Shown here piece after piece: positions 54,146-59,700 of a stretch of DNA of 64,000 nucleotides. Positions within the stretch are counted from its first letter, which is position 1; every line of letters begins with the position of its first letter. A model generated the notes under the pieces. That model was given only the letters and a program-made list of their open reading frames with translations, was not told the origin of the DNA and did not search any database. Source of the stretch: Candidatus Latescibacterota bacterium (GTDB lineage: Bacteria > Latescibacterota > UBA2968); NCBI GenBank assembly GCA_965204745.1, contig OZ242010.1, forward strand, positions 4,064,001 to 4,128,000, given 5' to 3'. The position numbers were made by a program, and so were the translations under genes.

Positions 54146-54730
54146 CTAAGCCAAGCCCGCGGCTTTCAGCAAAATTTTTTGCTCGTCCGCGTCGAGGTGC
54201 ATCTCGTCCATGTGCCCCATCAGTTTGTCGCGCCTGCGTGCATCTCGTTTCCGCGTCTCGGCAACGAGGTCCGTAAGCCTCGTGAAAGTCCCCTGTTGAT
54301 CGTTAGGTACGAGTTGGCCCGAATCCATGAACTTGATCCGCCCTTGCAAGTCTTCCGGCACGGTCCCGAGTGCTCGTTTTTTGAACTTCTCGACGTTTCG
54401 CGTTGCAATCTCTGTTCTGCCACAGGCCGCGGGCAGGAAGGGCTCGTTCATCCGCATTGCCGCGCCTTCCAGCAAGCAAGTCAACGCTTCGCGGCTCAAT
54501 GAACTCGCTTCGGGAACATCGAGAACGAGCCAACGATTTAGCGTCTCAATTTTTTTTCGTTCTCGCTCATCGGGAACGAGATTCACGGATGGCGAGTACG
54601 CGCAATTCACAGCGGGCCAAATCGTTTTTTCATGGGCGTTTTTTTTCGCCTGCCGCCTCAGCGACAAGTATATCAGGAAGAACGCCCCTGTTGTAATGAC
54701 CATGCCGATGAGTGTCATGACTGCTTCCAT
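54146..54730 (-). CDS. Hypothetical protein with N-terminal TM
   Basis: 194 aa; its ATG overlaps (TAATG) the stop of the upstream small ORF once IS607 is removed. Confidence 0.6.
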   Translation of the reverse strand: MEAVMTLIGMVITTGAFFLIYLSLRRQAKKNAHEKTIWPAVNCAYSPSVNLVPDERERKKIETLNRWLVLDVPEASSLSREALTCLLEGAAMRMNEPFLPAACGRTEIATRNVEKFKKRALGTVPEDLQGRIKFMDSGQLVPNDQQGTFTRLTDLVAETRKRDARRRDKLMGHMDEMHLDADEQKILLKAAGLA

Positions 54731-54739
54731 TACTCATCC

Positions 54740-54900
54740 TGATACCTTTCTGTTGACCCTTATTAACAGCGTGAGCAAATCAATAAGTGTTCAACCAGTG
54801 CAAGTTGCATCCAAACAGTTCCGCAACTTGGGTGTATCCACCAAAGCACGGAGAAAAATACCCCGTGCGCCGTTGATATCTCGATCCATGACTTGACCAT
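54740..54900 (-). ncRNA. Predicted TnpB omega/reRNA scaffold at the IS607 right end (5' boundary uncertain)
   Basis: Expected location for this family; hairpin CAAGTTGC/GCAACTTG (54801-54830), CTGTT/AACAG hairpin, and possible GATAC/GTATC pairing between 54834-54838 and 54741-54745. Confidence 0.5.
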
Positions 54901-55933
54901 CTTTTCTGCTACGAATGACTTTCGCTCCGCCCAAGTTTTTTACAATCTCACCTGTCCAACTGACTGTCTTGGATGTGTAAGCCTCGTTCACATCCAAGAC
55001 CAACTTGCCAGTTTCAAACGCCTTGTGCTTGAGAAACTGCTTGAAGCGATAATGGGCAAAAGTCAACATTGAGCGGACAGACTTACGGCGAAGGCAACGC
55101 TTACCGCGCACAACCATCTCGGTCGTCTCAAACGTGGGCAGAAGAATCACATCGTAGTTGTCCACCAGCCAGCGCGCAGTCTGTTTGTGCAGTTCATCGA
55201 TCAAGTCTCGGATGCGCCACCGCATGCGATGGCAGGCACGCTTCAAACGCACCTGGCGAAAGCCGATGGCCTTTGTCATGCGACCGATCAACCCGTCAAG
55301 ATGAATACACAAACGCTGAATACGACCAAAATCACCCTCGCCAATCTTACCGCAATCTGTTTCAGAAAAGAACGTCAAGAAACTGCGAATACCAGGATCA
55401 AGCGCCACGACACGCCCTTGGTTCTCGGCTACGTGCCGTGGACTTGAATGAGGCACGGTCACAGAGTACCGGCCATTGTAACTGACCAAACGGCCATCCT
55501 TCGGAACAACTGACAATGGCTCAGACAAACGCACATTGCCAAGGCTAAGAGGATAAAATGTCGTCAATGCCTTATTCCAAGCCACATGGCACAAATACAA
55601 GGACTGGATAGGGGCTTTACGACTACGGAACTGCAAGAGCACTTTCCGCTTTATCCCTTGCTTCTTGAATGCTTTACGCTTACGCCAGACCGCCTGGTTT
55701 GCCTGGTAAGCATCGGCTATCGCACCGCAAAGAATCTTGCTCGGCACATCGGCAAACCAGAAAGGACTCACCGCACGGACAACACGTCGCATATCGTATT
55801 CAGACAAAGAAAATCCCGCACGGTACAACGACACAGCCTCGTTATACCACCAGCGGGTAGCGACCATCCAATGCCTGAACTTTGCGCGCTGATCAGCGTT
55901 CGGATAGATTCTTATCTTCCTTGATTTTGTCAC
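54791..55933 (-). CDS. tnpB: TnpB RNA-guided endonuclease (DPG-type RuvC)
   Basis: KIRIYP, VVALDPGIRSF, VNEAYTSKT, DRDINGARGI; GTG 55933 lies 1 nt after the tnpA stop, but the frame stays open to 56440. Confidence 0.88.
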   Translation of the reverse strand: MTKSRKIRIYPNADQRAKFRHWMVATRWWYNEAVSLYRAGFSLSEYDMRRVVRAVSPFWFADVPSKILCGAIADAYQANQAVWRKRKAFKKQGIKRKVLLQFRSRKAPIQSLYLCHVAWNKALTTFYPLSLGNVRLSEPLSVVPKDGRLVSYNGRYSVTVPHSSPRHVAENQGRVVALDPGIRSFLTFFSETDCGKIGEGDFGRIQRLCIHLDGLIGRMTKAIGFRQVRLKRACHRMRWRIRDLIDELHKQTARWLVDNYDVILLPTFETTEMVVRGKRCLRRKSVRSMLTFAHYRFKQFLKHKAFETGKLVLDVNEAYTSKTVSWTGEIVKNLGGAKVIRSRKDGQVMDRDINGARGIFLRALVDTPKLRNCLDATCTG

Positions 55934-55934
55934 G

Positions 55935-56468
55935 CTACTTGCGGAGGCCGGACAGCCTGCAAGAGAACGTATCCAGAAGGGATAAAATATCCTGTGTGAG
56001 TTCTTGTTCTGGACGACACTTTGACGCGTCGAGAACCACGACCGCGCCCCCGTTTTGCTTTGCCAGCCAGTCAACAAGTTCAAAGCCAAACCGTGCAAGG
56101 CGGTCTTGGTGGGCAACCACAATTCGCAACTTTTCTCCGCTGTGTAAGCGTTCCAGTAGGGCGACAAGGCCCTTCCGCTTTTCGTTGAGGCCTCCGTCAA
56201 TGTCTTTGACGACCTCTGCGCTGGGATAACCGGATTGAAGGAGCGCAACTTGCCCGCGCAAGTCGTCTTTTTGGGCATAACGACTGACCCGTGCATAGAG
56301 CACAAATTCAACGCCAACTTCTTCCCGCAAGAACGCATTGACATCGTAAAGTCTCCTTCCGCCTGGACTGCGAATATGCTCAATCCGACCGTCATTCGCC
56401 CACTTACGCAACGTATTCGGATGAACACCGAGCAAAGCAACCGCTTTGCGAGTATTTACATAAGGCAT
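55935..56468 (-). CDS. tnpA: IS607 TnpA serine recombinase
   Basis: MerR-like HTH LGVHPNTLRKW..G....RSPGGRRLY, YARVS catalytic Ser, DRLARFGFEL. Confidence 0.9.
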   Translation of the reverse strand: MPYVNTRKAVALLGVHPNTLRKWANDGRIEHIRSPGGRRLYDVNAFLREEVGVEFVLYARVSRYAQKDDLRGQVALLQSGYPSAEVVKDIDGGLNEKRKGLVALLERLHSGEKLRIVVAHQDRLARFGFELVDWLAKQNGGAVVVLDASKCRPEQELTQDILSLLDTFSCRLSGLRK

Positions 56469-56496
56469 AGCAACTTACGGCTTTTGTGAACAAGTG

Positions 56497-56709
56497 TCAG
56501 CAATTTATTTCCAAGCCGCTATCTCCTTGTGCAATCAAAATGCACAACGCGCCTATCCCGATGCCCGTGGCAACCATGACAACATACGGAAATGGGGTCT
56601 CGGCCCGCAAGATGGGTGCGATAATCCCCCCGACAATCCACGCGATGCCGATGCCTTTTGCCGTATCTGCCAACAGCTTGATTTGGTCATTGCTCATCTT
56701 CATACCCAT
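56497..56709 (-). CDS. Small two-TM protein, last codons replaced by IS607
   Basis: LLADTAKGIGIAWIVGGIIAPI...VVMVATGIGIGALCILIA. Confidence 0.5.
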   Translation of the reverse strand: MGMKMSNDQIKLLADTAKGIGIAWIVGGIIAPILRAETPFPYVVMVATGIGIGALCILIAQGDSGLEINC

Positions 56710-56713
56710 TTTC

Positions 56714-59700
56714 CTAATCGTCATCGGCGACGTCATAAGCCACATCGCGGCGGGCAAAGACCCCTGCACTCAGGCGGCGGAGGGCCAAGCGCAGATCGTC
56801 GAGCAAGGTGTAGAACAGGGGTACGACGAGCAGGGTCAGAAATGTCGATGCCAAAAGCCCGCCCATCATCGTGCGCCCAAGCGGCGCGTAGGGCACGCCC
56901 ATCACATTGCTACCGCCCACGGCCATGGGCAACAAGCCAAACACGGTCGTAAAGGTCGTCATCAAAATGGGGCGGAAGCGATTGCGGCCCGCCTCCAAAA
57001 TCGCGTCGAAGCGCGCCCTGCCATCGGCGCGCAGGCGGTTGATCATATCCACCAGCACAATCGCGTTGTTCACCACCACGCCGATCAGCACGATCACCCC
57101 GATAAACGCCATCGTATCCATGGGCGTATCTGTCAAATACAAGGTCCAGTACACGCCCAAAAAGGAAAACGGGATGGAGAAGAGCACGGAAAACGGCAAG
57201 ACGAACGACTCGAACAAAACGCCCATCAGCAAAAACACGCTCGTCACCGCCATCACCATGCCGATTTGCCCAGAGGTCTCGGTCTCTTGAAGTTGCTTGA
57301 ATCGCTCGCCTTTGTGCCACGAATACCCGCGCGGCAACTCGATCCCGTCCATCATTTTGTCTATCGCCTCGTACAACCTCCTGCCAGATTCCATCGTATA
57401 GGTCCGAATCCGCAACTTGACCCTGCCATCGTACCGGGCGATGCGCCCGGTGCCACGCGAGACCTCAAAGGAAGCGATCTCGCCCAGGGCCACTTCCGCG
57501 CCTTCGTCGGTCGAAAACGCGAAATTGCGTAACTGATTCAGATTTTGCCTATCCGCCCGCTCCAAGTACAGGCGCACCCTGACTTCGCCATCTTCGGATT
57601 GAAACCGGGGCAGCGAGACGCCTTGCAAGCCGTAGGCGATATAGCGTCCAATATCCCGTGCAGAAACGCCCATGCGGTTCGACCGTTCTCGATCAACTGC
57701 GACTCGCACCTCGTCATCGGCCCGTTCCAAATCCGTGTCGATGCTGACGATCGACGGGATTTGTTGCAGGCGCCACGTCACCTCATCCACGAGCCCGATC
57801 AGCACCTCGGTGTCCTCGCCTTCCAGATAGACCGATACGGACGACTCGCCGCTGATGCCATCGCCGTACCGCGCCAAGGAGTGCCACACGCCCACGTATT
57901 TCGGCGTGTGCTCGCCGATATCCGCGACCATCTCTTGCCGTTCCATTGGCCCATCAAGGGGGATGCCGAGTGCTTTGCGTGCGTTTTTGTACGCGATGAA
58001 CCACCACGGGTCCTCGCTTTTGAGGGGCATGTACATCCGCAAATACCCAAAGCCGGGGCGGTAGTACACGCGCAGGATTTCATAGCCGTATTCCGCGCGC
58101 TTCTCCTCTAAGAAGTGCTCGACTTCGGTCACGATGCGCGCGGTTTCTTCCAACGTAAAGTGGCGCGGCATTTTTAAGCGCACGCTCAAATCGTTCACCT
58201 TGCCGCCCCCGCGGTCCGCGCGCTTGAGATTCGCCAGGGGATTGGGCTGAAATTCGGGGTACATCCACATCGTCGCCGTCAGTGCGAGCGCGATCAAGAC
58301 CGCGTCCCGCCGGTGGTTTAATGTCCATGCCAACATGCGCGCATACCCCCCTCGCACCATGGCGATAGACTTGGGATCTGGGCGCACCTGCCCCTTGCCC
58401 ACTTGCACGGACGCCAACGGGATGAACAACAGGGCCACGAACAGCGAGCCGACTAGCGCGATGCAAACCGGCACCCCCATGCGCGTCATGTAAAAGTTCA
58501 TGAACATATTGCCGCTGAACAACATCATCGGCAAAAACACCACCACCGTCGTCAACGTCGCCATGGTGATCGCCAGCCCCACTTCGCTCGCGCCCCAGAT
58601 CGCGGCGTCTTTGGGGGTATCGCCATTGCCGCGCCTGCGGTAGATGTTTTCCAAAATGACGATGGCATTATCGACCACCAAGCCCACGCCGACCATGAGG
58701 CCCATCATGGTCACGACATTGAGGGACCAGCCGATGAAGTACAGCGCGGTCATGGTGATCATCACGCACAGGGGAATGGCCAGGGTGATGATGCCCGTCA
58801 TGCGGAAGGTTCTCAAGTAGAACAACAGCACCAGCGCGGCGAACAACCCGCCCCAAAGCCCGGTTTCTCGCAGGTTGCGGATGGATTCTTTGATGAAAAA
58901 TCCCTGGTTGAAGATCACGCGAAACGACACGCGCCCGGCCAAGCGCGGGTCTCGCTCGAGTTCGCGCAGCTTGGCCTCTACCCGGTCCGTGATCTCCACG
59001 ACGTTCGCGCCCGATTCTTGTTTGATGCCAAAGCTGATGCCGGGCTTGCCGTCGATGCGCTGAATCCACGACATTTCGGGCACGTCGTACACGACCCGCG
59101 CCACTTCGCCCAGGCGCACCTTGCCCGCTCGGGACAGGATTTGGATATCCTCGATTTCTCGCAGTGCGGTGTAGCGCGCCAGCGAGCGCACGTAAAATTT
59201 CTTTTCGCCCTCGCGCACGTACCCCCCGGCGAGTGCGAAATTGTCGTTTTTGAGGGTCGAGACGATTTCGCCGATCCGCACGCCGCGCGCGCGCATGCGC
59301 TCTCGATCCACTTCCACCATCACTTCTTTTCGTTGCACGCCGAAAAAGCCGATCTGACCCACGCCATCCACGCGCTCTAAGGGCCGCTGGATGTGCGTTT
59401 CGATAAACCGAAACTGGTCCGTGATGGTGGAGTCTATCGCCATCGCCACCCACATGACTTCCCACGAATCATCATCGTATTTGCGAACCCGCACGTCGTC
59501 CCGCGCTTCTTCGGGCAGGTGGGGTTTGAGGTGTTCGAGGCGGTCCGAGACCTGATTGTAAGCCGCGACCATGTCGGTGTATTGGCGAAATTCGATGATC
59601 GCCCGCGCCCCGTTCGATTCGCTGTAACTCCGCAGGCTCGCGATGCCCTTGACCGTGCGGAGCGTTTCTTCCAAGGGCAGGGTGATCAGCTGCTCGGTCT

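Follow-up and report, generated by a model that had tools for sequence, protein, structure and literature searches.

The DNA analyzed here (the window) is a stretch of 64,000 nucleotides from the genome of Candidatus Latescibacterota bacterium (contig OZ242010.1, positions 4,064,001 to 4,128,000), and all positions below are those of the window. On its minus strand, it carries an element of about 1,784 bp, counted as the body 54741-56522 plus one crossover dinucleotide. An intact, recently mobile insertion sequence of the IS607 family is very probably the best overall explanation of this element. A preliminary description of the DNA had placed an intact IS607 element with a Fanzor-like TnpB here, and Pfam matches and motifs confirmed both tnpA and TnpB. 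The genes and the catalytic residues are as follows.

55935..56468, minus strand: tnpA, an IS607-type serine recombinase of 177 amino acids (aa) with a MerR-like helix-turn-helix, a resolvase catalytic domain and an RVS motif
54791..55933, minus strand: TnpB core, 380 aa, with a GTG start at 55933, assigned by Pfam matches
55397-55399 (D179), 54983-54985 (E317) and 54878-54880 (D352), minus strand: catalytic residues of TnpB, from the alignment to 9b0l_P

TnpA matched Resolvase (PF00239, 8e-14) and MerR (PF00376, 5e-8), and the TnpB core matched Cas12f1-like_TNB (PF07282, 9.8e-14) and HTH_OrfB_IS605 (PF12323, 4.6e-10). The tnpB gene lies directly 3' of tnpA on the same strand; the tnpA stop codon is TAG at 55935-55937, and the core GTG at 55933 begins five bases past the final tnpA sense codon. 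TnpA proteins of related loci were 45-59% identical and were also encoded directly upstream of tnpB. In the copies L002 and L004-L006 and in most relatives, the tnpA frame extends 40-60 nt beyond the start of the TnpB core before its stop codon; the window copy differs in that its stop codon lies just ahead of that start.

The 5.48-Mb genome contained five other full-length copies (97, 87, 85, 84, and 78% identical), two more copies with most of tnpA deleted, and fragments. The tnpB frame was open in six of these seven other copies, and the zinc-finger Cys residues were missing in all seven. The ratio of nonsynonymous to synonymous substitution rates (dN/dS) of the core was 0.12-0.31 for the 21 pairs among seven copies of the genome, indicating purifying selection. 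The copies occupied unrelated sites with differing flanks, and an empty allele was found at the window locus. These results indicated that the element has been mobile.

Nuclease core and the zinc-finger-less lineage

The strings ALDPG, ILLPTFE, VNEAYTSKT, TVSWTG, RSRKDG, and MDRDING were all found in the window TnpB. In a phmmer search against PDB sequences, the best match was the mimivirus Fanzor2 chain 9b0l_P (E 8.4e-24), followed at a distance by UnCas12m4a (E 4e-4) and Cas12f chains (E about 0.02), and the same search gave no IS605 TnpB chain at E <1. It was observed that D179, E317, and D352 align with D324, E467, and D501 of 9b0l_P, which have been named as the catalytic triad of ApmFz2 (PMC11832414). 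The preliminary description had taken RuvC-I to be DPG, RuvC-III to be DRD, and the Glu of VNEAYTSKT to be a relocated catalytic residue, and the alignment with Fanzor2 agreed on each point. The zinc-finger residues C474, C477, C491, and C494 of Fanzor2 align with V324, T327, S342, and D345, so that four of four Cys are replaced, as had been proposed from TVSWTG and RSRKDG. E317 is followed by six residues and then by V324, the former position of the first Cys.

The conservation of these positions was examined in relatives. The Glu of PTFE was variable, with N, S, D or G at that place, and the Glu of NEAYTSKT was invariant in 15 of 15 sequences and in 90 of 90 of a larger alignment. DPG was likewise invariant (90/90), as was the D, E, D triad among the 90 aligned relatives. 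No conserved Glu was found at the canonical RuvC-II place, so the protein lacks the combination of a canonical Glu some 50 residues ahead of the zinc finger and a Y1 TnpA partner by which IS200/IS605 is recognized. DPG together with an alternative RuvC-II Glu has been described as a mark shared by Fanzors and by those IS607 TnpBs that form the clade called pro-Fanzor or TnpB2, the proposed source of Fanzors (PMC10711439). On sequence grounds, the window TnpB is thus a pro-Fanzor/TnpB2-type RuvC nuclease that has lost all four zinc-finger Cys and is presumably able to cleave.

A structural model was predicted with AlphaFold2 from a 90-sequence alignment with no templates, giving a mean predicted local distance difference test score (pLDDT) of 81.7 and a predicted TM score (pTM) of 0.78. 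The ribbon segment was retained without its Cys and was modelled at pLDDT 92-95. Structural comparison of the model with 9b0l_P gave a Z score of 27.2 and a root-mean-square deviation of 4.2 over 411 residues, with model residues 60-506 on chain residues 53-518. The corresponding Z scores for ISDra2 TnpB (8h1j and 8exa) were 25.4 and 24.6 over model residues 136-506, and the ISDra2 and ISFba1 TnpB and Cas12f chains aligned only from model residue 136-138. By sequence and by predicted fold, the closest solved structure is mimivirus Fanzor2 (9b0l) and not an IS605 TnpB, in agreement with the Fanzor-like assignment made earlier.

The distribution of the zinc-finger-less state was analyzed in a tree starting from 151 sequences, P0002 and the top 150 representatives of 50%-identity clusters. 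After filtering for at least 330 aa and for the DPG and E.YTSKT motifs, 107 were kept and 44 dropped. Among the 107, 64 had no CxxC, 40 had a zinc finger, and 3 were partial. In the FastTree tree, which retained the zinc-finger columns and contained no IS605 outgroup, 61 of the 64 zinc-finger-less representatives lay on one side of a branch (local support 91), and the window TnpB fell inside this clade. As judged from these sequences, zinc-finger-less proteins form a large and almost monophyletic clade. Outside the genus, the closest relatives were cyanobacterial, at about 50% identity (Moorena, Nostoc, and Anabaenopsis), and database records placed further relatives in Caldilineaceae, Dehalococcoidia, Latescibacteria, Synergistales, Thiomargarita, Marithrix, and many cyanobacteria. 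According to these records, the clade covers at least five phyla, and relatives were also present in viral contigs (80 kept of 227 found).

That "some large TnpB branches" have lost the zinc finger is already published (PMC10691335), and supplementary figures S3C,D of that paper may already show the zinc-finger-less clade. The pro-Fanzor search expressions of Yoon et al. demand CxxC...CxxC (PMC10711439) and are therefore unable to retrieve it. The Fanzor active-site signature thus occurs in a large zinc-finger-less clade that includes several phyla and viruses, not cyanobacteria alone. The eukaryotic Fanzor nucleases, for which this lineage is the proposed bacterial source, attract interest as genome editors of small size.

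Element boundaries, probable crossover site and predicted guide RNA

The features at the two element ends, including a predicted transposon-associated motif (TAM), are listed below.

56469..56522, minus strand: left end of the element, from the crossover site to the tnpA start, containing AGCGGCTTGG; common to L002, L003, and L005, which have unrelated flanks
56523..56527, minus strand: AGGAG of the left junction, taken here as AGG (target/TAM) followed by the crossover AG (56523-56524), or alternatively as the first five bases of the element
54739..54740, minus strand: AG at the right junction, the putative crossover dinucleotide; the right end is GGTATCAG in seven of eight copies
54739..54879, minus strand: predicted omegaRNA (reRNA) scaffold with five helices, ending ...GGUAUCAG and overlapping the last 29 tnpB codons, supported by covariation
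54718..54738, minus strand: predicted guide in the right flank, (G)ATGAGTAATGGAAGCAGTCA, by analogy with IS607 TnpB biology (PMC10711439; 10.1101/2023.11.20.567912)

Similarity between the copies begins at 56527 (AGGAG...) and ends with ...GGTATCAG(G) at 54738-54740. The right end was as first described and was confirmed by both the copy comparison and the empty allele. The left end had been placed at GG 56511-56512; because the similarity starts 15 bp outside this GG, AGCGGCTTGG is element sequence. AGGAG was present at the left junction in six of six full copies of the genome. The loose ends of further copies in four DNA runs (X1-X4) also stopped at AGGAG, and the next 10-15 nt varied by sub-family. 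The base after the right-end AG varied over the copies (G in five, A in one, and T in one).

To obtain the uninterrupted site, contigs of the four runs were placed on the region. One X1 contig joined 54740 to 56529 via 24 other letters and represents the empty allele, with a depth of 26.6 against 56.8 and 69 for the flank contigs. At the junction, it reads ...TTCTAAAGGAGG followed directly by ATGAGTAATGG; in parts it is ...GATTGCAC-TGGGTATATTAACTTTTCTAAAGG-AGGATGAGTAATGG, and in minus orientation ...TTTTGATTGCAC-TGGGTATATTAACTTTTCTAAAGG-AGGATGAGTAATGGAAGCAG. An identical uninterrupted arrangement, ...CTTCTAAAGGAGGATGAGTAATGGAAC, was seen in G018, a genome from this genus, and both have AAGGAG at the place matching the left junction. 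This sequence replaced the empty site proposed earlier, AGCGGCTT-GG-ATGAG. In the empty allele and in G018, the upstream small open reading frame (ORF) ends ...KEDE*, with TAATG overlapping the next start, so the TAATG-coupled gene pair of the preliminary description exists, although it does not arise through the junction proposed there. The 20 genomes of the genus offered no further empty site for L005, since the element-adjacent flanks are not conserved there, and these genomes held element relatives only 66-75% identical. The exact 20-nt right-end word GGTCAACAGAAAGGTATCAG was found in metagenome contigs at three loci (L173-L175), all representing one place, with TATCAG followed by T. No tnpA or tnpB was found within 2 kb of them, and a solo end or some miniature derivative may be present there.

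Members of the IS607 family carry one and the same crossover dinucleotide at their two junctions and have neither inverted repeats nor a target duplication. In all IS607 elements studied so far, the reported crossover dinucleotide is GG (PMC10711439; 10.1101/2023.11.20.567912). In cyanobacterial, Chloroflexota, and Latescibacterota relatives, the element ends in ...AAAAAGTATC/GG (GTATCGG) and begins with GG/(C/T)TA(A/G)C, as a GG crossover predicts. Copies of the family in this genome have the end ...AAAGGTATC/AG, with TG for AG in L006, and their left junctions are AGG/AG/(A)TAGCG, AGG/AG/TTAACG or AGG/AG/GTGCTAAC. AG and AGG are present at both junctions of the window copy, and AG agrees best with the empty allele. 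Assuming an AG crossover and the target AAGG/AG/G, the empty allele and one 20-nt flank deletion (TGGGTATATTAACTTTTCTA) account for both window junctions, whereas a GG crossover with AGGAG inside the element needs at least two extra events. The spacing of the crossover, one nucleotide, and TA(A/G)C also agrees with the relatives that end GTATC/GG and begin GG/(C/T)TA(A/G)C. These comparisons suggested that the crossover in this family is probably AG, and the target and TAM AGGAG, rather than GG.

In published systems, CboTnpB has the TAM TGGG against the right end TCGG (10.1101/2023.11.20.567912), and ISXfa1 has the TAM GGG, with the first flank base belonging to the scaffold (PMC10711439). 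By analogy with CboTnpB, a TAM of 5'-(A)GGAG is predicted against the right end TCAG, and the ISXfa1 rule for scaffold and flank predicts that the guide starts at G54738 or A54737. The sequence 5' of the target in the empty allele is AGGAG(G), which is not the TAM ending in TTGG suggested previously. The boundary from which the guide had been expected to start, at the right flank (G)ATGAGTAATGG, was confirmed, and the guide itself remains a prediction. If true, IS607 target and TAM choice would be able to shift from G-rich GG sites to AGGAG, a new TAM.

The position of the insertions relative to genes was also examined. Seven of the eight copies had, 1-10 nt from the crossover site, a start codon that begins an ORF of 55-470 aa, and in six of them the distance was 7-10 nt. 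Judged from these flanks, Shine-Dalgarno sequences (AGGAGG) seem to be the insertion target of the family, at a point between the Shine-Dalgarno sequence and the start codon, in which case the element sits between a ribosome-binding site and its start codon. Judged from title and abstract, none of the papers listed in the literature search, which belong to the TldR/flagellin work, was on IS607 insertion at Shine-Dalgarno sites. Several relatives with GG ends likewise lie a few bases ahead of an ATG.

At the 3' end, the RNAalifold analysis of the eight copies of the genome gave five helices, and the closing helix pairs GAUAC, located in the VDTP codons, with the terminal GUAUC. A covariance model (R1) built from the last 132 positions matched 46 of 46 loci, once each and at full length, ending at the right end (E 2e-42 to 7.5e-4). 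In this alignment, 94.3% of cells were paired, compared with 77.2% in 500 shuffles and at most 42.9% when the partners were slid. Changes on both sides of the pair (compensatory) occurred in 32 of the 39 pairs, and they were counted in 255 cells against 73.5 expected, a number reached by none of the 500 shuffles. No Rfam family was found in 54600-56700 at E up to 1. The strong covariation over 46 loci argued for a structured RNA of about 130 nt at the tnpB 3' end and right end. At 54741-54745 and 54835-54839 (minus strand), the conserved C-terminal VDTP motif and an RNA helix constrain common bases, and the pair is kept in the 46 loci.

Two host genes flank the element.

54146..54730, minus strand: downstream host gene, 194 aa, without a Pfam family, its Shine-Dalgarno sequence split by the insertion
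56497..56769, minus strand: upstream small hydrophobic host ORF, without a Pfam family, its last 10 codons (GDSGLEINC*) from the element left end

The upstream ORF is chimeric, because its last 10 codons are supplied by the element's left end.

Reading frame upstream of the TnpB core

The TnpB frame remains open far upstream of GTG 55933, forming an ORF of 549 aa. The part in question is the following.

55934..56344, minus strand: putative N-terminal extension of TnpB, 137 codons from ATG 56344 in the +1 frame of tnpA, with an open frame and frozen tnpA codons

ATG 56344 lies 8 nt after GGAAGGAG and gives a long form of 517 aa; initiation at another ATG, at 56395, would yield 534 aa. Many homologues are recorded as proteins of 510-550 aa in which the TnpB core starts near residue 150. 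Among the loci with adjacent genes, tnpB was in the +1 frame of tnpA in 63 of 64. In 34 loci non-redundant at 85% TnpA identity, the frame was open for 142-189 codons up to the core in all except one, which was open for 92. Synonymous shuffles of tnpA gave mean open runs of 17-62 codons, and the observed run was reached in at most 3% of trials at 32 of the 34 loci; the +2 frame of tnpA contained 2-20 stops. L079 (a Dehalococcoidia metagenome-assembled genome, 2431-4140) is the sole locus with tnpA and tnpB in one frame (offset 0), continuously open, and may represent either a fusion of TnpA to TnpB or an artefact (assembly or indel).

Constraint was visible in both genes. The extension contains the invariant or nearly invariant residues PYW, LWLP, and SWFS, and the tnpA codons beneath them were frozen over phyla (GTT 31/31, GCC 32/32, ATC 25/25, GTG 22/22, GTT 33/34, and CAC 24/24). 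Val codon entropy was 0.64 in tnpA versus 1.79 in the tnpB core, and that of Leu was 1.40 versus 2.15. Of 37 loci, 24 had their first ATG at tnpA codons 23-26 and 9 had it at codons 41-44. The latter group includes four of the five examined copies of this genome's family, and the window copy has an additional earlier ATG at tnpA codon 25. A purine-rich stretch was found ahead of these start codons.

In the AlphaFold2 model, residues 1-59 were disordered, residues 60-86 were folded (pLDDT 87-88), and residues 100-131 were folded (61-86). The range of the model on the Fanzor2 chain (53-518) covers its N-terminal domain 53-130 (RuvC-R and thumb), a domain of ApmFz2 that has been described as unique to Fanzor2 and present in no other TnpB structure (PMC11832414). 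A phmmer search of the 519-residue extended frame (54794-56350) against PDB sequences did not align the extension to the Fanzor2 N-terminus, and the likeness is visible in the predicted fold only. Based on the frame conservation and the model, TnpB is most likely made as a 517-aa protein whose first 137 residues come from the +1 frame of tnpA, and the extension is most likely the counterpart of the Fanzor2 N-terminal domain. The window TnpB had previously been called compact, which is probably not so, since a conserved frame that is predicted to fold continues for about 137 codons upstream in tnpA. If this is true, constructs made from the annotated start may lack the region whose Fanzor2 counterpart is in contact with target DNA and with the pseudoknot of the guide RNA.

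No paper describing tnpB overprinting on tnpA was found in the literature. In the available parts of the sources, the word "overlap" was absent from PMC10711439, PMC3627910, and PMC13565253, and had other meanings in PMC10691335 and 10.1101/2023.11.20.567912; the available part of the text supplement of PMC10711439 contained none of "overlap", "N-terminal", "zinc", and "frame".

Proposed mechanism, alternatives and comparison with known systems

The proposed mechanism is as follows. TnpA would excise the element as a circle and integrate it by crossover at a dinucleotide, which in this sub-family is apparently AG and not the usual GG; the preferred site would be AGG/AG/G, a Shine-Dalgarno sequence 7-10 nt before a start codon. 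The structured RNA would read through into the flank, (G)AUGAGUAAUGG..., as the guide. The guided TnpB would then cut the empty allele beside the TAM, predicted to be 5'-AGGAG, and the occupied site, with TATCAG at the TAM position, would be spared. The break could then be repaired from the occupied copy, which would amount to homing. In a joint reading, GG has given way to AG as the crossover of the sub-family and RGGG to AGGAG as its TAM, with homing into Shine-Dalgarno sites, and the Fanzor2 N-terminal domain is ancestral, encoded by about 137-160 overprinted codons. We hold this conjunction tentatively and place it a little below an even chance. If it were true, the published "compact" pro-Fanzor proteins would be truncated annotations. 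Relative to what is in print, the element stands out by its zinc-finger-less TnpB, a probable AG crossover with an AGGAG TAM at ribosome-binding sites, and the putative overprinted N-terminal domain.

Alternative explanations concern both the ends of the element and its protein. The version of the preliminary description, with an element at 54738-56512, a GG crossover, the empty site AGCGGCTT-GG-ATGAGTAATG, and a TAM ending in TTGG, gains some appeal from the upstream ORF, which when read through that junction ends ...DE* with a tidy TAATG overlap. However, AGGAGATAGCGGCTTGG is common to L002 and, in diverged form, to L003 and L005, all with unrelated flanks, and AGCGGCTT is missing from the real empty allele and from G018, which leaves this version with next to no probability. 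It is also conceivable, and in our view unlikely rather than far-fetched, that AGGAG is the element's own left terminus, with a GG crossover in the shared AGG, a target of (A)GG, and no defined TAM. The use of GG in every studied IS607 element and the AGG at both junctions of the window copy are consistent with this, and a target of five or six bases would be long for a small serine recombinase. However, the sequences 5' of the target would then be NNAGG (empty) versus TCAGG (occupied), without a conserved difference, and the L003 flank itself gives TCAGG. The need for at least two extra events in deriving the junctions counts against it as well. Moreover, three right ends are CAG followed by A or T, and AGGAG never varies while the bases after it differ between sub-families.

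For the protein, the 137-codon frame might be untranslated, its openness and the frozen tnpA sites reflecting a function at the RNA or DNA level, such as a promoter, mRNA structure or TnpA binding sites. The GTG at 55933 with its conserved KSRKIRIYP start would suit this explanation, and some database entries start at that GTG. However, an RNA or DNA element would not need one frame kept free of stops along about 160 codons, as seen in 33 of the 34 lineages, and PYW, LWLP, and SWFS are amino-acid motifs of precisely that frame. In 33 of 37 loci, tnpA codons 23-26 or 41-44 hold a start codon accompanied by a purine-rich stretch, and the extension is predicted to fold, with an aligned range covering Fanzor2 53-130. 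Both points also speak for translation; the prediction was template-free, and the structure was released in 2024. We therefore regard an untranslated frame as quite improbable. A decaying or domesticated, non-cutting TnpB appeared still less probable. The replacement of all four Cys and the missing canonical RuvC-II Glu point in that direction, and nuclease-dead TnpB derivatives are known (10.1101/2023.11.30.569447). However, the triad is invariant and the core is under purifying selection, and the element that contains the gene is complete, present in multiple copies and polymorphic for presence/absence, and its guide-RNA scaffold is conserved. Whole TnpB branches without the zinc finger have been reported, and the zinc-finger-less RIIIr-4 is one of three rearranged clades that the authors suggested to be catalytically active (PMC10691335). 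The confident modelling of the ribbon segment without its Cys also argues against decay.

Several observations weigh against the reading that we prefer, namely a mobile element with an active, extended TnpB, an AG crossover, and an AGGAG TAM. The tnpB of L003 is frameshifted near residue 157, and L006 has the right end TATCTG and the motif PTFG. L005 and L007 (G000:C1:2873531-2878319; 3118320-3122487) have homologous left and right flanks, with most of tnpA absent from L007; they represent one insertion in a duplicated segment or other repeat, not two independent ones, and there are therefore fewer independent insertions than copies. The empty allele is known from one short contig of one run. 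In addition, 20 nt of the left flank (TGGGTATATTAACTTTTCTA), present in the empty allele and in G018, are missing at 56528-56529 of the occupied allele. The occupied and empty alleles are therefore not a clean pair, and the AG crossover depends on parsimony; the 20-nt difference is either a deletion beside the left end during or after insertion or a difference between alleles of slightly different strains. AGGAG at every left junction may equally well be a terminus of the element. The covariation was counted on an alignment fitted to the model, which favors structure; the low slid controls argue for a real signal. Finally, loss of the zinc finger could impair function.

The element shares features with several known systems. 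The pro-Fanzor/TnpB2 proteins (PMC10711439) likewise have DPG, a Glu six residues before the zinc-finger position, and an IS607 serine recombinase directly upstream. They differ in having CxxC...CxxC, which the window TnpB lacks, and in their cyanobacterial hosts, the present host being a bacterium with a 5.48-Mb genome; the right end of the window element is TATCAG, not TATCGG. Like the TnpBs of ISXfa1 and the Clostridium botulinum IStron, the window TnpB has a serine-recombinase partner and a guide scaffold at the right end that is predicted to read into the flank; in those systems, as proposed here, there is overlap between TAM and transposase target, and the mismatch of the element end to the TAM lies 3-4 bases upstream. 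They use a GG crossover, the TAMs GGG and TGGG, and a scaffold end of UCGG, whereas AG, AGGAG, and UCAG are inferred here. The IStron also carries a group I intron, and no Rfam family was found in the window element. ISDra2 TnpB (IS200/IS605) has a common core fold with the window TnpB, and differs in its canonical RuvC-II Glu, zinc finger, Y1 transposase partner, and lack of an N-terminal domain. The closest counterpart is ApmFz2 (L79 of Acanthamoeba polyphaga mimivirus; 9b0l), the best match by sequence and fold, with an aligned catalytic triad and with the predicted extension inside the range aligned to the chain that bears the N-terminal domain 53-130. ApmFz2 has a zinc finger, a nuclear localization signal, a GGG TAM, and a giant-virus host (PMC11832414), and Fanzor2 proteins are encoded by eukaryotes or eukaryotic viruses; in contrast, the window gene lies on a single 5.48-Mb prokaryote contig, and its N-terminal domain would be encoded inside tnpA, in a second frame.

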